Part shown: one piece after another, positions 56,546 through 64,000 of the stretch
Numbering within the stretch: the first letter of the stretch is position 1
How the letters are laid out: the number at the start of each line of letters is the position of its first letter
Source of the DNA: Escherichia phage humlepung
Sequence record: MN850564.1
Length of the DNA: 64,000 nucleotides
Strand: one strand, 5' to 3'
Notes under the pieces: generated by a model
The model's input: the letters and a program-made list of their open reading frames with translations, nothing else
Databases searched by the model: none
What the model was told of the DNA's origin: nothing
Made by a program: the position numbers and the translations under genes

Positions 56546-57331
56546 ATGGGTATTGTAAAAATAATCAATGGTGATATCTTTGCCGAATTTGATAAAGGTA
56601 AGTTTGACATCATCGGTCACGGTTGCAACTGTATGAATTTAATGGGTGCAGGTATCGCTGACAAGATTTCTAAACTTTACCCAAAAGCATATGAGACCGA
56701 TACAGAAGTTTATCTATATGCAGGTGGTATAGGACACAAACCCTGTGAAAATTTACTGGGTAATTTCTCTGTAGCACGTTTAAAACAAGGTCGAATAGCT
56801 AACCTTTACACTCAGCTTAAGACTGGTAAAGATGCCCGATACAGTGCTTTAGAATCATCTTTGAAACAGCTTAACAGATACTGTGAAGTCAATCAGTTGA
56901 AGAAAGTCGGGTTACCTATGATTGGCGCAGGTATCGGTGGACTAGACCCTCAAGCCGTCACAGTTATCATTAATCAGGTGATGAAGAGTGTAGATGTTTA
57001 TCTGTATGTCTACGAAGGAGAGATGTACCACAAGTTACGCTCAGGTTGGAATAACTACTGTGAACCAGAATACTTTGCAGGTGTAGTAATGTTCACAGAT
57101 GATACAGTTACCCTCTTCAGACGAAGAAAAGGTAAGATACATCAAAGTAACCCTCCGGTTGAGAAGATGTCTCTAAGTAACGCTCTAGTTACCCACCTGT
57201 CGAAGAGCAATCACAGAATTGCAGTAACATTTGGCAGTGATGCGGATACTTATATCTATGCAAGAACTGATGAGGATATCGAGTTAATCTTCTCTTCACC
57301 AGAGCTTACCTTCTTAGACGCAAAGAACTAA
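56546..57331 (+). CDS. macro-domain (ADP-ribose binding/hydrolase) protein with C-terminal extension
   Basis: N-terminus INGDIFAEF...DIIGHGCNCMNLMGAGIADKI fits the macro-domain GDI...NAAN...GGGV pattern; 261 aa. Confidence 0.55.
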   Translation: MGIVKIINGDIFAEFDKGKFDIIGHGCNCMNLMGAGIADKISKLYPKAYETDTEVYLYAGGIGHKPCENLLGNFSVARLKQGRIANLYTQLKTGKDARYSALESSLKQLNRYCEVNQLKKVGLPMIGAGIGGLDPQAVTVIINQVMKSVDVYLYVYEGEMYHKLRSGWNNYCEPEYFAGVVMFTDDTVTLFRRRKGKIHQSNPPVEKMSLSNALVTHLSKSNHRIAVTFGSDADTYIYARTDEDIELIFSSPELTFLDAKN

Positions 57332-57405
57332 GAAACTTCGTAGCATATTCACAATAGACTAAGCCTTTCTTATCTGGTAAATTTTTTCAGGTAAGGAGGG
57401 CTTTT

Positions 57406-57585
57406 TCATTTTAGAATTGTGCAGGTAGAGTTATGTAGAGAAATCTATAGAGAAAATTTTGAACTCCAAAGAGAAAATTCATTTTCAAACTGTGCAGGTA
57501 ATCTCCAAAGAGCTTTTTCATTTTCAAAACGTGCAGACCCCGCTCAGGTCGGGCAAGAAAAATCATTTTAGAATTGTGCAGGTAG
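57406..57585 (+). repeat. iteron-like direct repeats (4 copies of ~23 bp TCATTTT(A/C)(G/A)AA(T/C)(T/C)GTGCAGGTA)
   Basis: Copies at 57406, 57479, 57518, 57563; copies 1 and 4 identical; CTCCAAAGAG also repeated. Confidence 0.6.
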
Positions 57586-57600
57586 GTTTTTATAGACAGC

Positions 57601-57640
57601 CAGCCCAACCCCTCTCCCCCTCTTACTCCCCCTCTCCCCA
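57601..57640 (+). repeat. polypyrimidine C-rich tract
   Basis: CAGCCCAACCCCTCTCCCCCTCTTACTCCCCCTCTCCCC, between iterons and strong promoter. Confidence 0.5.
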
Positions 57641-57760
57641 AAAGTCAAGAGAAAAATTTGTAGCGGATTGAAAAATAATTCTTGATTTGCGTTCTGTTTT
57701 GTGGTAGTCGTGCGCACCCGTTTCATTACAGTTTTGCCAAAAATATTTTTAAGATTTTTA

Positions 57761-57852
57761 TTGACTCTTTGAACGTGGTTATCTAATATTTACATCAACG
57801 GGGAGGGAATGACCTTCCCCACTAAATAAAATCCTAAACTGGAGATTCAAAA
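57761..57852 (+). promoter_or_regulatory. cassette type 1 (promoter TTGACT-N17-TAATAT, 5-prime hairpin, conserved leader with GGAG)
   Basis: Hairpin GGGGAGGGAATGACCTTCCCC at 57800-57820; leader ACTAAATAAAATCCTAAACTGGAGATTCAAAAATG. Confidence 0.65.
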
Positions 57853-58236
57853 ATGGCATACCGCGCACCGAAATTCATCAATAAAGAAAATTTTCGTAAT
57901 GTATTAGAGAAGGTGCTTGATGAAAAATTTAACGGCAAAATAATTGTTGTTCACGCATACAATTTCAAGTATGATATCAACGGGAATAAAATCAACCATT
58001 ACACGGCAACTATGTTAGATGGCAATCTTTCAAGTGAAAAAGCCGTACTGAATGCACTTGCCGGACGTGGAAAAAACCTGATAAGATGCGATAAGAGACG
58101 TTATCAGGGTGGCGCATATGGTTACGATGATGCTATTTATCATCTTGAAAATATGGGCTATCAAGTAGAAAAAGCTGGAGTATCACAAATCATCGGCAGT
58201 GATGGCTATGTAACAATCTTCAAAATTAACAAATAA
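57853..58236 (+). CDS. cassette gene A, hypothetical
   Basis: 127 aa; starts ATG GCA in conserved leader. Confidence 0.55.
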   Translation: MAYRAPKFINKENFRNVLEKVLDEKFNGKIIVVHAYNFKYDINGNKINHYTATMLDGNLSSEKAVLNALAGRGKNLIRCDKRRYQGGAYGYDDAIYHLENMGYQVEKAGVSQIIGSDGYVTIFKINK

Positions 58237-58322
58237 AGTACTTTACAGGGGGCTTATAGTTCGATAAAGTAAGCCCCAGATAAAGAGCTTTACCACTAAA
58301 TCCTAAATTGGAGAACTTAAAA
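58234..58322 (+). repeat. cassette type 2 (palindrome TAAAGTACTTTA, hairpin, conserved leader)
   Basis: Palindrome begins with upstream stop codon; hairpin GGGGCTTATAGTTCGATAAAGTAAGCCCC without U-tract; shared leader/SD. Confidence 0.6.
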
Positions 58323-58613
58323 ATGGCTATTATCAAAAACGTTGTAATTCCCGCAAAAACTCGTGATGACGCTCGCATCATGGCGAAAAAGTTAGGCGGG
58401 AAAGTGGTTGACAATGGAAAACAATCTGCTGTAAGATGGGGTGTGAAGGCTGATAAACAGTTGAAGTTAAAAAATTCACCGATAAACCTTTTTACATGTG
58501 TAAACACTATCGGGAAGACAAATGTATACACGAAAAAAGCATATATTAGACGCGTAGCATTAACATCCCCCATTCGTACAATGAGAAGTTATGCAAAGCT
58601 GAAAATTAACTGA
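58323..58613 (+). CDS. cassette gene B, small basic protein
   Basis: ATG 58323 (track start is TTG); 96 aa; MAII N-terminus. Confidence 0.5.
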   Translation: MAIIKNVVIPAKTRDDARIMAKKLGGKVVDNGKQSAVRWGVKADKQLKLKNSPINLFTCVNTIGKTNVYTKKAYIRRVALTSPIRTMRSYAKLKIN

Positions 58614-58700
58614 TAAAGTACTTTACAGGGGGCTTAAAAGTTGGTATCTTAAGCCCCAGATAAAGAGCTTTACCACTAAATCCTAAACTGGAGATTCAAA
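58614..58700 (+). repeat. cassette type 2
   Basis: TAAAGTACTTTA palindrome; hairpin GGGGCTTAA...TTAAGCCCC with changed loop; conserved leader. Confidence 0.6.
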
Positions 58701-59213
58701 ATGAAAACTGTAGACGCTACTTTTGAAGTTGTAAAAGAAAAATTCACTATTATTTATGAAGCGGTAAATTGCTACGAAGCAAGCCATAATCTTGATAATT
58801 GGAAGTTTACAGATGACCATCAAGGCGGCGTGACTGTTAAAAACCCTAACTGTCAGCGTAACGATTTTAAATATGCAATCCCTTTAAATTATAGCCTTAA
58901 ACAGCTTTCTAGTGACTATGCAAAACAAGGCCGGGAAAATCCATCAAAAGAGGCTTACGCAAGCTTACAGAAAGAACTAGAAAGAGATTTAGAGGCTTCA
59001 GAGTACAACCTTGCCGCGAAAGTTGTCGATGCAAACGGTAACACGGTTTTAGAAAGTTTTTATCTTGGTTATGCTTTCGATTGGTGCTATAGTGACGGTG
59101 ATGATTTAGAGGAAAGACTAAAAGAAGAGGTGAGCAATTCAGACGCAGAAACTGAAGTATTAGAACGTTTGGAATCGTTGAAAGACTCAGTGATGAATAT
59201 CTTTAAGAACTAA
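58701..59213 (+). CDS. cassette gene C, acidic hypothetical protein
   Basis: 170 aa; acidic C-terminal half. Confidence 0.5.
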   Translation: MKTVDATFEVVKEKFTIIYEAVNCYEASHNLDNWKFTDDHQGGVTVKNPNCQRNDFKYAIPLNYSLKQLSSDYAKQGRENPSKEAYASLQKELERDLEASEYNLAAKVVDANGNTVLESFYLGYAFDWCYSDGDDLEERLKEEVSNSDAETEVLERLESLKDSVMNIFKN

Positions 59214-59305
59214 ATAGATTTCTTTACACGGGGTTATCAAGCTGGTAAGATAGCCCCAGATAAAGAGATTTATCAAATAAAGCCCTTAAACTAGGAGATT
59301 CTAAA
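59214..59305 (+). repeat. cassette type 2 (diverged copy)
   Basis: CTTTACACGGGGTTATC...GATAGCCCCAGATAAAGAG; hairpin retained with a G-U pair. Confidence 0.45.
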
Positions 59306-59602
59306 ATGAAATTATCAAATCAAGTGCGTGAAAATCTGAGCAAATTACTCAACAAAATTGATTTTATCGAGACATCAAGAAATAATCATGATGTTATGGA
59401 ATGGTTGCACGGCAAAATAAAAGGCCGTCGCGTAGTGATTTGCTTATGGAATAGTTGCAGGGAGTATAAAAAACCTGTATTGCAAGTAAATATTTATGAT
59501 GATACTTTTAAAAGTCCAGTAAAGTCTAAAAGTGACTTATTAGAATCCTATGAGATAACTGTAAATGGCAAAGTATCACGTAAAGAGGAAACACCATGTT
59601 AA
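59306..59602 (+). CDS. cassette gene D, hypothetical
   Basis: 98 aa. Confidence 0.5.
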   Translation: MKLSNQVRENLSKLLNKIDFIETSRNNHDVMEWLHGKIKGRRVVICLWNSCREYKKPVLQVNIYDDTFKSPVKSKSDLLESYEITVNGKVSRKEETPC

Positions 59603-59928
59603 TGACTGGCATCACCGCAATCCTTGCCATTTTCGCGCTATATAAGGCATATAAAGCCTATAATCTAGCAAATAAGGCAATCACGCAACAGGTCAATAAT
59701 AGCTTTGTAATGAGCTTTCTGGAGCGTTTAAGTGATGAACAAATAAAACGGTTAGAAATGAGCTTCAGATTTCAATCAAAAACTTATCAAATCAGCGACA
59801 TTTTCAAAGATGATTTTCAGTTAGTCGATGATTATAATTCTCTGATAAATGCTTTAAATGTCAGTGACTTAAAAGACTACTACGCTGTAATTGTTCAAGA
59901 ATTGAGCAAACGAAAAAATTCCTCTTGA
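59596..59928 (+). CDS. cassette gene E, membrane-anchored protein
   Basis: 110 aa; N-terminal TM segment ITAILAIFALY; coupled to gene D. Confidence 0.45.
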   Translation: MLMTGITAILAIFALYKAYKAYNLANKAITQQVNNSFVMSFLERLSDEQIKRLEMSFRFQSKTYQISDIFKDDFQLVDDYNSLINALNVSDLKDYYAVIVQELSKRKNSS

Positions 59929-60015
59929 TTTTGGTTTTTAAAACAAGTAAATTACTAATCAACGGGAGGTAATAACCTCCCCACTAAGTAAAGTCCTTAA
60001 ACTAGGAGATTCAAA
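59925..60015 (+). promoter_or_regulatory. cassette type 1 (TTGATT-N17-TAAATT, hairpin, leader)
   Basis: Hairpin GGGAGGTAATAACCTCCC (compensatory changes on both arms); conserved leader. Confidence 0.6.
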
Positions 60016-60288
60016 ATGTACACTACTAACAACGGTCGCACCTTAAACGTAACCATTCGTCACTATGTGAACGGTGTAATGCACTTCGAAGATTTACAAG
60101 CCGAACAACATATCTTAGATTGGCAACTTGCAGGACTACAAAAAACTGCTACAGGATACGGGAAAAAGATTCCAACCAGTTGGAAAGTATACTACGAAGG
60201 CCGTTTGCGCAGAATTTATCAGGATGTGCAAAGCAATAGCGCATCGAGTTACATCATAGTAAAAGGTAAAAAGCTGCATTTAGTGTAA
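60016..60288 (+). CDS. cassette gene F, hypothetical
   Basis: 90 aa. Confidence 0.5.
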   Translation: MYTTNNGRTLNVTIRHYVNGVMHFEDLQAEQHILDWQLAGLQKTATGYGKKIPTSWKVYYEGRLRRIYQDVQSNSASSYIIVKGKKLHLV

Positions 60289-60374
60289 AGTACTTTACAG
60301 GGGGCTTATAGTTCGATAAAGTAAGCCCCAGATAAAGAGCTTTACCACTAAATCCTAAATTGGAGAACTTAAAA
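60286..60374 (+). repeat. cassette type 2
   Basis: Near-identical to copy at 58234 (stop TAA embedded in palindrome). Confidence 0.6.
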
Positions 60375-60779
60375 ATGGCTATTAATAACCGTGAATTATC
60401 AATCTTAAAAGCACGTTTGACCGTTAACCGGATTAATGTTATCACGTCATCAGCGCCTGATGAGACATTGCACAACATTATCGGGAAGATTCAAAGCGTT
60501 ATCTTAGACGTTGAAAACGTAAAAAAATCATTGGCTGACGTTGCATCAGGTATCACGCTAGACGGCGCACAATATGAAATGGCTGACATGTTAGGCAAAT
60601 CAAAGATAATGAATAAAGAGCTTGATTTAAAAATGTTTCGATTTGCTGTTAAAGTATGGCTATCCGTCGAGTATGACGCTAATTTTGCAATCGCTGATTT
60701 CTTTGCCACTTGGTTACAACGTAATTTGACAAATCACGATTTTCGTGATGTCTGTGATGCAATTTATGCAGAACTCTAA
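60375..60779 (+). CDS. cassette gene G, hypothetical
   Basis: ATG 60375 (track start TTG); 134 aa; MAIN N-terminus. Confidence 0.5.
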   Translation: MAINNRELSILKARLTVNRINVITSSAPDETLHNIIGKIQSVILDVENVKKSLADVASGITLDGAQYEMADMLGKSKIMNKELDLKMFRFAVKVWLSVEYDANFAIADFFATWLQRNLTNHDFRDVCDAIYAEL

Positions 60780-60787
60780 AAATTTTG

Positions 60788-60879
60788 TTGACACCGGTTT
60801 TTAGATAGATTAAATTACACATCAACGGGGAGGGAGTGACCTTCCCCACTAAGTAAAGTCCTAAACTGGAGATTCTAAA
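60788..60879 (+). promoter_or_regulatory. cassette type 1 (TTGACA-N17-TAAATT, hairpin, leader)
   Basis: Hairpin GGGGAGGGAGTGACCTTCCCC. Confidence 0.65.
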
Positions 60880-61083
60880 ATGGCTATTATTAACGGCTTA
60901 AACATTGAAACTACACACATCAAAGATATCAAAGTTGGCGATATAGTCCTTTCCCACGGCGTAGAAAAAACTGTCACTACAAAGGATATCAAAGAGGATT
61001 CTTTCATGGGTAGGACTCTCTTCGGTGATTCTTATTGCTTAGGGTATCTTGCAGTCTTAAAAGTTGTCAAAAATAACAAATAA
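60880..61083 (+). CDS. cassette gene H, small hypothetical
   Basis: 67 aa; MAII N-terminus. Confidence 0.5.
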   Translation: MAIINGLNIETTHIKDIKVGDIVLSHGVEKTVTTKDIKEDSFMGRTLFGDSYCLGYLAVLKVVKNNK

Positions 61084-61169
61084 AGTACTTTACAAGGGGC
61101 TTATAGTTCGATAAAGTAAGCCCCAGATAAAGAGCTTTACCACTAAATCCTAAACTGGAGATTCAAAAA
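61081..61169 (+). repeat. cassette type 2
   Basis: TAAAGTACTTTACAAGGGGCTTATAGTTCGATAAAGTAAGCCCC...leader. Confidence 0.6.
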
Positions 61170-61712
61170 ATGAAATGCTTTCACGGTACTACTCAAGAAA
61201 ACTTTATCAACCTGATTAATAATGGTGATAAGCCATCAGGTGCATGGAATTGTTCGGATATGGACGGCAATTTTTACGTGTACCCAGAAAATAAAATCTA
61301 TGGCGACGATGAGGAAGAGATAATCTCTGAAGGTATCCAGCAAGCGTTAGGTAATGCCACTATTACGGCCGCTTTCCAGATGAAAACCCAAAATATTGTT
61401 ATCTTAGAACTTGATATCCCAGAGGATGACCTAAATGACGATTATTCTTGTGATAATATGTCTGGCGTAGCAAGTTTTACAGAATACTTCGATTTAAATT
61501 GGATTAAAAAGGTTTACGTAACAGAGTTTAACGCTATGTATTCGCCTTTTTGTCTTCCTTCATTGGATAACCCAAATTTAAATTATCTTGATGAGTCTCT
61601 GGAGCTTCTTGCTAAAAGTGTCCAACAGTCGGACAGTATTCAGGTTTTTTGTGACATCATGGACACACTAACGGGAAACATCGCAGAAGAGGATTTAAAG
61701 AGCTTTTTCTAA
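61170..61712 (+). CDS. cassette gene I, acidic hypothetical protein
   Basis: 180 aa. Confidence 0.5.
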   Translation: MKCFHGTTQENFINLINNGDKPSGAWNCSDMDGNFYVYPENKIYGDDEEEIISEGIQQALGNATITAAFQMKTQNIVILELDIPEDDLNDDYSCDNMSGVASFTEYFDLNWIKKVYVTEFNAMYSPFCLPSLDNPNLNYLDESLELLAKSVQQSDSIQVFCDIMDTLTGNIAEEDLKSFF

Positions 61713-61744
61713 AAACCTATGCAATCGCCTTATAAACACTGATT

Positions 61745-61764
61745 AGCCCCTCACAGGGGCTTTT
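61745..61764 (+). terminator. rho-independent terminator
   Basis: GCCCC-TCACA-GGGGC followed by TTTT. Confidence 0.5.
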
Positions 61765-61778
61765 AAGAGGCTTAAATC

Positions 61779-62012
61779 ATGCTTACAACCGTTTATCTTA
61801 TCCTTTCTATTTGTAATGGTCATTCATGTGATTTTAAAGGGCTTGAGGAGTTTACAGGAAGTAAAGAAAATGCTGTTCAGGTCTGTCAGATAGCAAGGCA
61901 AGACTACCCCGCCAGTGATGACATACAATGTTACTTTAAGACAGAAGATGAAGATGGTATCTATTTCGATAGTGTAGACGGTCAATATGAAATAATTATA
62001 GAAAAAGACTAG
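61779..62012 (+). CDS. cassette gene J, small Cys-containing protein
   Basis: 77 aa; RBS AAGAGG. Confidence 0.45.
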   Translation: MLTTVYLILSICNGHSCDFKGLEEFTGSKENAVQVCQIARQDYPASDDIQCYFKTEDEDGIYFDSVDGQYEIIIEKD

Positions 62013-62102
62013 ACAAGCCTGATAAAAATCTGTAAATTACTAATCAACGGGGAGGGAATGACCTTCCCCACTAAACAAAATCCTAAACTGGAGATTCAAA
62101 AA
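62010..62102 (+). promoter_or_regulatory. cassette type 1 (TAGACA-N17-TAAATT, hairpin, leader)
   Basis: Hairpin GGGGAGGGAATGACCTTCCCC at 62049-62069. Confidence 0.6.
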
Positions 62103-62444
62103 ATGGCTTATGTAACCGTAATTACCGATAAAGCTGGCGCATCTTGGTCAACTCAGGTTAGTGATAAGATGTCGCCTATGCAGTGCCTAAAATACTTTGA
62201 ACAGTGGAACAAAGGCGAGGACACAAGCCCCTTTCACGTAATGCAGATTATTCATGTAGACAATGAAGGGAAGAAAACAACTCTGAATAGTGAGTACTAC
62301 GCAAGCCGTTTTGAAACGAGAAGTAAAGCAATGAAGCTCTTACGTGAGGCCGGATATGGTCACATTGCCGCGATAATCTGGGATGACCTTCTAAAAAGTC
62401 AACGTATCAGCTATGTAAAGCCTGAAAAAATATTCATCAGTTAA
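62103..62444 (+). CDS. cassette gene K, hypothetical
   Basis: ATG 62103 (track ORF starts inside the hairpin at 62058); 113 aa. Confidence 0.5.
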   Translation: MAYVTVITDKAGASWSTQVSDKMSPMQCLKYFEQWNKGEDTSPFHVMQIIHVDNEGKKTTLNSEYYASRFETRSKAMKLLREAGYGHIAAIIWDDLLKSQRISYVKPEKIFIS

Positions 62445-62573
62445 TCAATAACTTACAAAAAACTTTTAAAAAAGTGTTGACAATACCCCTTGACATTGGT
62501 AACTTTGTTCGAGGGGGTTTATCTAAAAGGGATTCACTTAAAAGATTCTTTATAGATAAGCTTAAAAAATTGC

Positions 62574-62663
62574 TTGCAATCAGCTATCAAAACAAGTAAA
62601 TTACTAATCAACGGGAGGGATGACCTCCCCACTAAATAAAATCCTTAAACTAGGAGAGTCAAA
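62574..62663 (+). promoter_or_regulatory. cassette type 1 (TTGCAA-N17-TAAATT, hairpin, leader)
   Basis: Hairpin GGGAGGGATGACCTCCCC; additional TTGACA motifs at 62475-62495 upstream. Confidence 0.6.
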
Positions 62664-63194
62664 ATGAACAAGTTTAAAGCTATCAACTTCATTCGTTCAA
62701 ATGCTGTAATGTCAAAACCTGTAAAAGACACATACGAATTTCGCTGCAATGGGGTACACTTTGCAACCATCACTAAGTCAGAAAACGGGGCTTATTACGT
62801 ACATCGTCGTAATGTTGCAACCGTTGTAGTCTCTCACTTTATGCAAGCTGTAGCGGAGTTATTACCGTTATTCTTAGAGATTTATCTAGGTGAGTGTAAA
62901 AACGTTCGTAACCACGTTAAAAACCTTTTAAACGGTTATAAAATGGCTTATGAACGTTCTATCAAGTCCTTGAACAAGTTCTATAAATCCCCTGTAAATA
63001 CTGTTTCAATGGCTTACACTGTAAGCGGTGAGTTGGTTAGCCTCTTCGAAGTAGAAGAAATTGAACTATATGACTCACGTCCTAGCGGTTACTCTAAGAC
63101 ACTGGGAGAAGGATTATCTTTCAATATCAAGAACTTAGAAAAAACTTTAAAAGATATTGAAAAAGATATTGACGAGACAATCAAAAGTCTGTAA
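62664..63194 (+). CDS. cassette gene L, hypothetical
   Basis: 176 aa. Confidence 0.5.
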   Translation: MNKFKAINFIRSNAVMSKPVKDTYEFRCNGVHFATITKSENGAYYVHRRNVATVVVSHFMQAVAELLPLFLEIYLGECKNVRNHVKNLLNGYKMAYERSIKSLNKFYKSPVNTVSMAYTVSGELVSLFEVEEIELYDSRPSGYSKTLGEGLSFNIKNLEKTLKDIEKDIDETIKSL

Positions 63195-63260
63195 ATTGTC
63201 AATCAACGGGGAGGGAATGACCTTCCCCACTAAATGAAGTCCTAAACTGGAGATTCTAAA
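63169..63260 (+). promoter_or_regulatory. cassette type 1 (TTGACG-N17-TAAATT, hairpin, leader); -35 lies inside the 3-prime end of gene L
   Basis: Hairpin GGGGAGGGAATGACCTTCCCC at 63208-63228. Confidence 0.6.
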
Positions 63261-63509
63261 ATGGCTACTATCCGCGCAACTGTTAACGAATTCGGCTTCT
63301 ACTCTCTGGACGTTAAATTTGACCTTGTAGGTACTGATAACACCTTTGAAATGGTGAAAGGCCTTATCAGCCAGACCATCAGTGACTACAACCCCTCTGA
63401 TGAATTCTGGAAAGAAACAAAACAGGAAGTTCTCAAAGAGGGTTATACATACCACTACTGGGGTGAAAAAATTGTCTCCCTGTACTACGACAAAAAAGGC
63501 ACTAACTAA
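63261..63509 (+). CDS. cassette gene M, hypothetical
   Basis: 82 aa; MATI N-terminus. Confidence 0.5.
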   Translation: MATIRATVNEFGFYSLDVKFDLVGTDNTFEMVKGLISQTISDYNPSDEFWKETKQEVLKEGYTYHYWGEKIVSLYYDKKGTN

Positions 63510-63547
63510 ACGCCGCAACGGGGCTAAATAGCCCCAGATACCTTTAC

Positions 63548-63575
63548 AGCCCCTTTCCCATAGGGGCTTTTTTAC
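63548..63575 (+). terminator. rho-independent terminator closing the cassette array
   Basis: AGCCCC...GGGGCT followed by T6; preceded by a type-2-like hairpin GGGGCTAAATAGCCCCAGATA. Confidence 0.55.
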
Positions 63576-64000
63576 GTCTTATCAAATCCCTTATACAACC
63601 CTTTCCCTTTCCTTTCCAGAATCTTATCAGACCTTAAAAAGCAATAACTCTATAGTCTACTCTATAGCCTTTTATCAAATCAACTTAAATATAAGCCCAT
63701 AACCCGAAAGGGAAGGGCAACCGTTTAAACGCTCTATAAAGCTCTATAACAGCCTTATCAACCTAACTTAAGGGATTGCATTAACTCACCCTAAAAAGCC
63801 CTTTATAAAGCTTCCCAGAGACTTAAAAGAATCTTATAAGGGTGTAAGCTTTATTATCTCGTTAGCTATCTTGTGAACTACTAAACAAGCCCCTTGATAG
63901 TAACTGAAAAGTATGTTATAGGGGCTTTAAAGTTACTTTGAAGTGGCTTAAAAGTTACGTAAATGCTAGCCCCCTTAACATTTTCTTAACAATTTCTTAA
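63576..64000. repeat. non-coding repeat-rich region (CTTATCA x5, CTCTATA x4, AAGTTAC x2)
   Basis: No ORF of 60 aa or more on either strand; short direct repeats and pyrimidine-rich tracts. Confidence 0.5.

Follow-up and report, generated by a model that had tools for sequence, protein, structure and literature searches.

Of the elements described in phages, the promoter-early stem-loop (PeSL) cassettes of T4-type phages (Arbiol et al., 2010, PMC2839356; Comeau et al., 2014, PMC4122927) stand closest to the repeated intergenic cassettes considered here, which head an array of small genes at 57761-63574 of a 64,000-nucleotide (nt) stretch of Escherichia phage humlepung (sequence record MN850564.1; the whole stretch is referred to as the window). 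Promoter activity, terminator activity and encapsidated mini-circles are part of the published description of PeSLs, whereas the array is known here from its sequence alone. The window is from a Felixounavirus (Felix O1-like phages, Ounavirinae): its segment 57700-63600 matches 256 phage records, nearly all of them Felixounavirus phages of Escherichia, Salmonella, Shigella or Citrobacter, and 52 of the 256 span at least 80% of the segment at about 90% identity. The Felix O1 genome paper (Whichard et al., 2010, PMC3185647) lists the same elements, as direct repeats only, and does not interpret their structure, regulation or evolution. Apart from that 2010 list, a literature search found no paper linking Felix O1-like phages to PeSLs or mapping their transcripts.

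The array is a 5.8-kb block in which 11 repeated cassettes of two classes (6 Type 1 and 5 Type 2; every intergenic stretch was inspected) head 11 modules of one or two open reading frames (ORFs), 13 ORFs in total. The reading preferred here, which we consider likely, is that it represents a hyperplastic early-gene region of 11 self-contained expression modules that are shuffled by recombination between the cassettes. It is carried by four direct observations, namely the anatomy of the array, the conservation and covariation of the hairpins, their strand asymmetry, and a variation by whole modules whose junctions lie in the cassettes.

Composition of the array

The 13 plus-strand ORFs (g1 to g13) fill positions 57853-63509 and are bounded by two intrinsic terminators. 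Given the sequence match of the first to Felix O1 t13 and the position of the second, which is that of t23, the block corresponds to Felix O1 genes 14-23. Type 1 cassettes precede the genes at 57853, 60016, 60880, 62103, 62664 and 63261, and Type 2 cassettes those at 58323, 58701, 59306, 60375 and 61170. Of the direct repeats listed for Felix O1, that of 57 bp (between genes 15/16 and 19/20) is the Type 2 element and that of 39 bp (between genes 18/19 and 20/21) the Type 1 promoter. An initial sequence-only reading of the window had placed a cassette before every gene; this stands for 11 of the 13, the exceptions being g5 (59596), which overlaps g4 by 7 nt, and g10 (61779), which follows a terminator-like hairpin.

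For comparison, 28 loci were retrieved via the gene immediately 5' of the array (56546-57331), which has a Pfam Macro domain, together with four annotated records; their ORFs were clustered and cassette type was mapped against gene. The comparison of modules covers 22 related loci. Compared loci carry L numbers below, and the features of the window are as follows.

57363..57410, +: intrinsic terminator at the end of the preceding transcription unit, upstream limit of the array; sequence of Felix O1 t13 (PMC3185647 Table 2), annotated as a terminator in phage AYO145A
57761..57852, +: Type 1 cassette of g1; -35 TTGACT 57761-66, -10 TAATAT 57784-89, hairpin 57800-57820, Shine-Dalgarno leader to ATG 57853
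57853..58236, +: g1, 127 amino acids (aa), phrog_4495 ('unknown function')
58234..58322, +: Type 2 cassette of g2; lower stem 58234-45/58281-92, upper stem 58249-57/58269-77, TTTACA 58242-47, TAAAGT 58265-70; g1 stop codon within the lower stem, leader 3'
58323..58613, +: g2, 96 aa, accessory; absent in L002 and L011, tandem duplicate in L022
58614..58700, +: Type 2 cassette of g3; TTTACA-N17-TATCTT
58701..59213, +: g3, 170 aa, accessory; absent in L003, L012, L018 and L021, with differing junctions
59215..59305, +: divergent Type 2 cassette of the g4-g5 module; TAGATTTCTTTA / TAAAGAGATTTA fully paired; TTTACA-N17-TAAGAT
59306..59928, +: g4 (98 aa) and g5 (110 aa), 7-nt overlap, one cassette for both
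59925..60015, +: Type 1 cassette of g6; -35 TTGATT contains the g5 stop codon, -10 TAAATT 59948-53, shorter hairpin 59964-59981
60016..60288, +: g6, 90 aa
60286..60374, +: Type 2 cassette of g7; identical to the g2 cassette over all 86 intergenic nt and into the first codons (ATGGCTATTA)
60375..60779, +: g7, 134 aa, core
60788..60879, +: Type 1 cassette of g8; TTGACA-N17-TAAATT, hairpin 60827-60847
60880..61083, +: g8, 67 aa, accessory; absent in L004, L023 and L026
61081..61169, +: Type 2 cassette of the g9-g10 module
61170..61712, +: g9, 180 aa, predicted ADP-ribosyltransferase-like fold
61746..61764, +: terminator-like hairpin GCCCC-TCACA-GGGGC followed by TTTT, separating g9 from g10; read from the sequence
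61779..62012, +: g10, 77 aa, without its own cassette, invariably linked to g9
62010..62102, +: Type 1 cassette of g11; -35 TAGACA contains the g10 stop codon, -10 TAAATT, hairpin 62049-62069
62103..62444, +: g11, 113 aa
62445..62573, +: long spacer between g11 and g12; extra TTGACA-rich stretch, 41-codon GTG ORF 62474-62599
62574..62663, +: Type 1 cassette of g12; -35 TTGCAA, -10 TAAATT 62597-602, hairpin 62613-62629
62664..63194, +: g12, 176 aa
63169..63260, +: Type 1 cassette of g13; -35 TTGACG inside g12, g12 stop codon inside -10 TAAATT, hairpin 63208-63228
63261..63509, +: g13, 82 aa
63516..63548, +: half cassette at the array end, fused to the terminator; CAACGGGGCT-AAAT-AGCCCCAGATA-CCTTTACA
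63548..63574, +: intrinsic terminator, array end; found by a terminator scan, at the position of Felix O1 t23

The repeats lie at the coordinates given in the sequence-only reading and are far above chance, and the 11 elements have no other copies in the window. With up to three mismatches, CCTAAACTGGAGATTC was matched six times against 0.62 expected, all within 57833-63256; the 31-nt Type 1 hairpin block was matched four times against 0 expected, and the four exact matches to TAAAGTACTTTA all lie inside the array. No comparable cassette family was found in positions 1-57300 of the window, and an Rfam scan of 57000-64000 at E <= 1 gave merely two chance matches below threshold. Covariance models of the elements recovered 119 Type 2 and 128 Type 1 copies in the 22 loci, all of them inside the array, and the genomes compared carry 8-16 cassettes each. 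No cassettes were found in the more distant relatives L028 and L029, whose macro protein is 41% identical.

Two stretches of the array depart from the regular layout. The half cassette at the array end has the 5' context of Type 1, the 3' context of Type 2 and a TTTACA, and these mixed flanks suggest a common origin of both hairpin types. The end of the GTG ORF in the g11-g12 spacer resembles x28, a 46-aa predicted membrane ORF found at the same place in L022, L023 and L025; the spacer is probably a decayed module.

Hairpins, promoter-like motifs and the shared leader

The Type 1 repeat block begins approximately at the -10 (GTAAATTAC.AATCAACGGGG) and extends for about 75 nt to the ATG. The -35 hexamers (TTGACT, TTGATT, TTGACA, TAGACA, TTGCAA and TTGACG) are not part of the repeat but fall within the 3' ends of the upstream genes, which are unrelated to one another, and the spacer is exactly 17 nt in all six. 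The form TTGAC[A/T/G]-N17 first proposed for them is therefore right in its spacing, while its hexamer fits only three of the six. That a TTGACA-like -35 is found at 17 nt in every case, though outside the repeat, suggests that each site has been selected as a promoter. The stop codons of three upstream genes fall within a Type 1 -35 or -10, and the Type 1 cassette of g8 is annotated as a promoter in phage AYO145A. The hairpin, GGGGAGGG-AATGA-CCTTCCCC or a shorter variant, starts 10 nt past the -10, and a transcript starting about 7 nt after the -10 would bear it at the 5' end. Type 1 hairpins fold better than shuffled controls (z -1.9 to -3.4); across the 128 copies 96.5% of hairpin cells are paired, with double changes at three pairs. 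More distant relatives keep the Type 1 hairpin with a different sequence, GGGGC...GCCCC.

Both cassette types end in CCACTAAAT..CC(T)TAAACT(A)GGAGATTC.AAAATG, a leader of about 35 nt with the Shine-Dalgarno sequence GGAG 8-9 nt upstream of the ATG. It is shared, as had been noted, but it is not uniform: variants including CCTAAATTGGAGAAC and CCTTAAACTAGGAGA exist and are spread irrespective of cassette type or gene. The observation that six unrelated proteins begin with MAI, MAY or MAT also holds (g1, g2, g7, g8, g11 and g13), a proportion of 6 in 13 for the array proteins, compared with 10 of 80 ORFs in the rest of the window (Fisher p = 0.009).

Type 2 had been described as a perfect palindrome plus a hairpin. 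The palindrome TAAAGTACTTTA is present in four of the five copies, the copy at 59215 having TAGATTTCTTTA instead; the division into two elements has to be given up. The supposed palindrome is the 5' arm of one long structure and pairs with TAAAGAGCTTTA 47 nt downstream, giving a 59-nt two-part hairpin with a lower stem of 11-13 bp, a 3x3 internal loop and an upper stem of 9 bp (GGGGCTTAT / GTAAGCCCC). With its embedded promoter-like motif, TTTACA-N17-TAnnnT, this hairpin brings Type 2 nearer to PeSLs than was first supposed. In the divergent copy the arm is not palindromic, yet its partner TAAAGAGATTTA is changed to match and all 13 pairs form. The upstream ORF's stop codon falls within the lower stem.

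Type 2 hairpins also fold better than shuffled sequences (z -3.1 to -5.9). Over the 119 copies (113 distinct), 99.0% of cells are paired compared with at most 53% when the partners are slid, and compensatory changes occur at five pairs, including a lower-stem change from G-C to U-A. The covariance modelling proposed in the sequence-only reading has thus recovered conserved hairpins with compensatory changes for both types over the 22 loci. Wobbles on the sense strand are strongly biased towards G.U over A.C (Type 2, 201 against 9; Type 1, 90 against 25). Given this excess of G.U, the structures of both types are under selection in the sense strand, and RNA is the simplest form in which they would be selected. 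A double-stranded palindromic DNA operator at TAAAGTACTTTA was rejected in view of this bias and of the divergent copy, which is non-palindromic but complementary to its partner. Intrinsic (Rho-independent) termination at the cassette hairpins was likewise rejected, since no U-run is found 3' of them: ACTAAAT or AGATAAAG comes next, and the terminator scan flagged 63548-63574 alone in the region.

A promoter consensus scan flagged all five Type 2 cassettes, with TTTACA-N17 followed by TAAAGT, TATCTT or TAAGAT, each at 9/12. Among the 113 distinct copies TTTACA is kept in 112 and TAnnnT in 110, at a spacing of 17 nt (105) or 18 nt (5). The -10 occurs as 13 different hexamers in which positions 3-5 are near random whereas T1, A2 and T6 are kept, and its invariant TA sits in an otherwise variable hairpin loop. 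On this pattern Type 2, too, is probably a promoter cassette, one whose spacer carries the hairpin; the assignment stays conditional because TTTA and the last T of the -10 double as stem positions.

The same hairpin may be read in another way, according to which only Type 1 cassettes are promoters, Type 2 cassettes are RNA signals (an RNase III-type processing site or a 3' stabiliser) in polycistronic early transcripts, and TTTACA-N17-TAnnnT is a structural by-product. Stems of 11-13 and 9 bp with an internal loop, strongly conserved, covarying and selected in the sense strand, would suit such a signal, as would the invariant AGATAAAGAG and the internal-loop CA, which are conserved more than pairing demands, and the overlap of the -35 and part of the -10 with the stem. 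In shape, the 3x3 internal loop and the irregular duplex of about 20 bp fit the RNase III site type; the RNase III sites of T7, which separate cistrons in its early region, have the same general shape as the two-part hairpin. However, a processing hairpin offers no obvious reason why the loop TA should be invariant at 17-18 nt from TTTACA while its neighbours vary, and with the upstream stop codon in the lower stem terminating ribosomes would open that stem. In addition, TTTACW-N17-TAYWAT is the published promoter consensus of the T4/PST PeSLs, the stem-loops of which are mostly positioned between -35 and -10 (PMC2839356; PMC4122927). We regard this account of Type 2 as unlikely, although it is a serious one.

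Under the preferred reading, host RNA polymerase would start at each cassette, making the array an insulated multi-promoter block. In Type 1 a host sigma70 promoter would be followed by the G+C hairpin at the 5' end of its own transcript and then by the GGAG leader. The Type 2 hairpin would form in the sense RNA of read-through transcripts, where it probably attenuates or stabilises the upstream transcript, while the embedded T4-early-like promoter (TTTACA, 17 nt, TAnnnT) would let transcription begin anew immediately 3' of the upper stem and before the leader found in Type 1. The hairpins would in either case serve sense transcripts as stabilisers of the 5' or 3' end or as read-through attenuators, and the common leader would give all ORFs an identical translation start. 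Promoter activity, a role for the hairpins and early timing are what we infer. In the reverse-transcription PCR of Felix O1, the array ORFs 16, 20, 21 and 22 peak at 5 min (PMC3185647), and these data are weakly compatible with early expression. A 2025 transcriptome of K1B4 was set aside as irrelevant, that phage being a Kagunavirus.

Module variation among related loci

Across the 22 loci single modules are present, absent, duplicated or reordered. The proposal that the cassettes form a system that swaps small ORFs is upheld by this variation, the relatives having no identical gene set. Variably present are g2, g3, g8, g12, x14, x15, x19, x26, x27, x30, x32 and x44. The slot between g7 and g9 alone occurs in five states: empty (L004), g8 (window), x19 (L020 and L022), g8-x19 (L008) and x19-g8 (L013). 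In GenBank phage records g7 was found in 233, g8 in 177 and x19 in 55. Nor is the cassette type of a gene fixed, g8 having Type 1 in the window and Type 2 in L013, and g11 having Type 2 in L003; where g8 is absent, the Type 1 cassette joins g9 directly. Loss of g3 has left at least three types of junction, with the crossover beside the ATG in L003, at AGATAAAGAG in L021 and of a third type in L018. The ORF x30 is joined via the leader alone, and in L022 the cassette and g2 are tandemly duplicated with a period of 430 nt. The variants of the hairpin loop, which are unlike each other at about 8 of 13 positions, have been exchanged between orthologous slots in a mosaic.

Variation at the element boundaries had also been predicted and was found. 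Compared with 21 loci, 72 of the 114 internal BLAST breakpoints, which count non-independent events, lie inside cassettes that make up 16.6% of the sequence; most of those outside fall within 20 nt of one, and hybrid cassettes persist at the junctions. In the closest relative, phage allfine, identity alternates by module between 100% and 80-94%, and three of the five block boundaries are in cassettes and two inside ORFs. The same comparison revealed a 500-nt insertion, x26-x15, whose junction separates the Type 1 hairpin from the leader.

From these comparative patterns we infer recombination at the cassettes. General homologous recombination best explains the rearrangements, since the cassettes are the sole homology between unrelated modules and the crossovers are spread across them. 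Exchange between cassettes of 75-90 nt, within one genome or between co-infecting relatives, would delete, duplicate, insert and reorder modules and swap alleles, and the genes would remain expressible; the same mode of action has been proposed for the PeSLs of T4-type phages.

It could instead be argued that the cassettes are ordinary expression signals under purifying selection, and that recombination occurs anywhere and is followed by selection for intact genes. Survivorship bias of this kind would put the visible junctions in intergenic DNA, and some mosaic boundaries do lie inside ORFs. The junctions, however, leave exactly one hybrid cassette, with crossover points that vary within the shared sequence, and the unrelated ORFs offer no other homology for precise deletion, duplication or order swaps of modules. 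The movement between slots of loop variants as different as those above requires exchange between cassettes. We therefore hold this account to be improbable.

A dedicated exchange system, site-specific or acting on single-strand DNA, would give the hairpins a function like that of integron attC sites. A 59-nt imperfect hairpin directly 3' of cassette ORFs, an array of unrelated small ORFs and a half cassette at the array end all recall such a system. Against it, crossovers are unfixed (near the ATG, at AGATAAAGAG and within the leader), Type 1 and Type 2 recombine via the leader alone, the attC core sites (RYYYAAC / GTTRRRY) are not present in the cassette sequence, and the cassette is limited to one phage lineage. 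A fixed-site mechanism does not fit crossover points as varied as these; integron-like site-specific exchange was rejected on this ground, and a dedicated system of any kind seems very improbable indeed.

The cassettes might also do more than offer passive homology, though we think this rather doubtful. Exchange between neighbouring cassettes would excise single-ORF mini-circles, which would be packaged and re-inserted in co-infecting Felix O1-like phages, and Type 2 would be a dual switch, in which the terminating ribosome opens the lower stem and so couples upstream translation to attenuation and to the restart of transcription. If true, this would give the Felix O1-like lineage a cassette-exchange pool of early genes.

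Several points weigh against the reading of the array as self-contained early modules shuffled at their cassettes. On the side of recombination, the two allfine boundaries inside ORFs indicate that exchange is not restricted to cassettes, and intergenic junctions are partly to be expected, since only phages with intact genes survive. The exact 20-nt Type 2 core is present only in Felix O1-sized viral contigs, and with the cassette sequence so confined transfer between lineages is without support. On the side of expression, the conservation of TTTA in the Type 2 -35 and of the last T of the -10, being stem positions, could be partly structural; agreement of the Type 2 -10 hexamers with TATAAT is limited to 4 of 6 positions; and a generic promoter scan found 24 sites in the region against 19.2 in shuffled sequences, which is no excess. 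With no U-run after either hairpin type, attenuation is an assumption taken from the PeSL work. Felix O1 ORFs 14, 17, 19 and 23 peak at 25 min (PMC3185647), and a literature search found no transcription-start, reporter or cleavage data for Felix O1-like phages.

Cargo, surroundings and comparison with known systems

The 13 array proteins have no paralogy to one another (best BLASTP E = 0.43), and an origin of the array by gene duplication was rejected because the ORFs are mutually unrelated. A Pfam search of 23 array proteins gave no family, PHROGs gave only 'unknown function' families for g1-g10, and sequence searches of the PDB with g1, g3, g9 and g12 gave no match; in annotated relatives the array genes are labelled as hypothetical proteins only. 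Structures were modelled for two cargo proteins, g3 and g9. The model of g3 is confident, and a structural search with it found no match. For g9 an ADP-ribosyltransferase-like fold is predicted: H5-G-T is near-invariant, Y36/Y38 and E80 are invariant, and these residues lie on the expected strands. This gene belongs to the array core, and homologues of it were found in Pseudomonas, Erwinia and Vibrio phages. Support for the suggested reservoir of host-takeover or anti-defence genes comes from one protein, g9, through its predicted fold, with g3 unmatched and no recognisable function in the other array proteins. As a compact early-gene set, with the ADP-ribosyltransferase-like protein within it and the macro-domain gene just upstream, the array is suited to tests of these activities.

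Between the macro-domain gene and the first cassette, a 430-nt non-coding stretch (57332-57760) separates the terminator from the array. Four copies of TCATTTT(A/C)(G/A)AA(T/C)(T/G)GTGCAG lie in it, at about 57406, 57480, 57519 and 57563, and 57600-57640 is a C/T-rich tract. At the equivalent place, Pectobacterium phage Arno162 carries four 41-nt repeats that are unrelated to these (L031 2024-2247). The stretch may be an iteron-like origin or packaging region. Small minus-strand ORFs annotated within this region in Bas63 appear spurious.

On the other side, the array is followed by a long non-coding stretch and thereafter by opposite-strand genes; about 1.6 kb of non-coding DNA precedes these convergent genes (window 63600-64000 onward; allfine L077 7809-8940). 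Short repeats (ctctatag / ctataaagctctataac) are found in it, and a repeat_region is annotated there in phage allfine. Several GenBank records begin or end 0.5-1.6 kb past the array, for which reason the physical genome end may lie downstream of it; UAB_Phi87 has a terminal repeat of about 600 bp. When the physical ends were sought from contig ends, these proved to be scattered and allowed no placement. The entire array is also found, at 91% identity, at 129657-135442 of GU169904.1 (Staphylococcus phage SA1), a 147-kb record, where it is probably contaminating Felix O1-like sequence.

Phages of the Felix O1 group are widely used in the typing, biocontrol and therapy of Salmonella and E. coli. 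The preferred reading would explain why isolates of the group differ chiefly by small ORFs in one block, and the cassettes offer annotators a rule for that block, namely 11-16 cassettes in each genome. Since members of the group are held in public collections (e.g. Bas63), the predictions are directly testable.

Like the array, the early region of T7 is a block of early genes read by the host polymerase, with irregular hairpins of about 20 bp between cistrons. The array differs from it in that nearly every module has its own promoter-like motif, and the RNase III sites of T7 are not known as repeated cassettes tied to gene shuffling. Halovirus HF2 has in common with the array two classes of repeated intergenic promoter-bearing sequence in a myovirus genome, and differs in its archaeal host and promoter type; the abstract of its description mentions neither a hairpin-plus-leader architecture nor module shuffling (PMC8707807). 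Pseudomonas phage PA10 (Pakpunavirus) carries TTGACAGCTTAGGCCATTCCTGTAGAATGGCCCTCAAGCAAGACAAAC in 4-7 copies around its g9 homologue (L032 910-8713). The repeat is a TTGACA-N17-TAGAAT promoter whose spacer and -10 are overlain by the dyad GGCCATTC..GAATGGCC. Another myovirus group thus has a PeSL-like cassette, unrelated in sequence to those of the array, and such cassettes may be widespread.

The closest likeness remains that to PeSLs. In each case a repeated intergenic motif spans the interval between the upstream stop codon and the Shine-Dalgarno sequence and start codon, with an A+T-rich stretch in its course, and both combine a sigma70-like promoter of 17-nt spacer with a G/C stem-loop variably placed around it. 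Both are clustered in a hyperplastic region, where they precede ORFans, and in both the junctions of insertions, deletions and replacements between close relatives lie in the motifs. Promoter-like hexamers matching at 9-10 of 12 positions are found in all six Type 1 and all five Type 2 cassettes. The stem-loop lies 10 nt past the -10 in Type 1 and over the spacer and -10 in Type 2, covarying in both, and the boundaries are marked by stop codons in the Type 2 lower stem or the Type 1 -35/-10 and by GGAG before the ATG. The Type 2 motif resembles the T4/PST consensus (PMC2839356; PMC4122927). Unlike PeSLs, the array cassettes fall into just two discrete classes with one common leader that reaches the first codons, their Type 2 stem-loop, a long hairpin in two parts, encloses the stop codon and the -35, and all copies stand in a single contiguous terminator-bounded array. 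The lineage is Ounavirinae and not T4-like, and there is no sequence similarity. Given that PeSL sequences themselves differ among T4-like groups, the T4-type affiliation that the array lacks is a matter of lineage and not of mechanism. With all five sequence-level features found, the analogy drawn in the sequence-only reading holds feature by feature and is supported in architecture and in evolutionary behaviour. The PeSL principle, its mechanism already established in T4-type phages and its functional steps putative in the array, would accordingly extend to the Felix O1 group: portable cassettes of promoter, hairpin and ribosome site would keep shuffled genes expressible and at the same time supply the homology for their shuffling.

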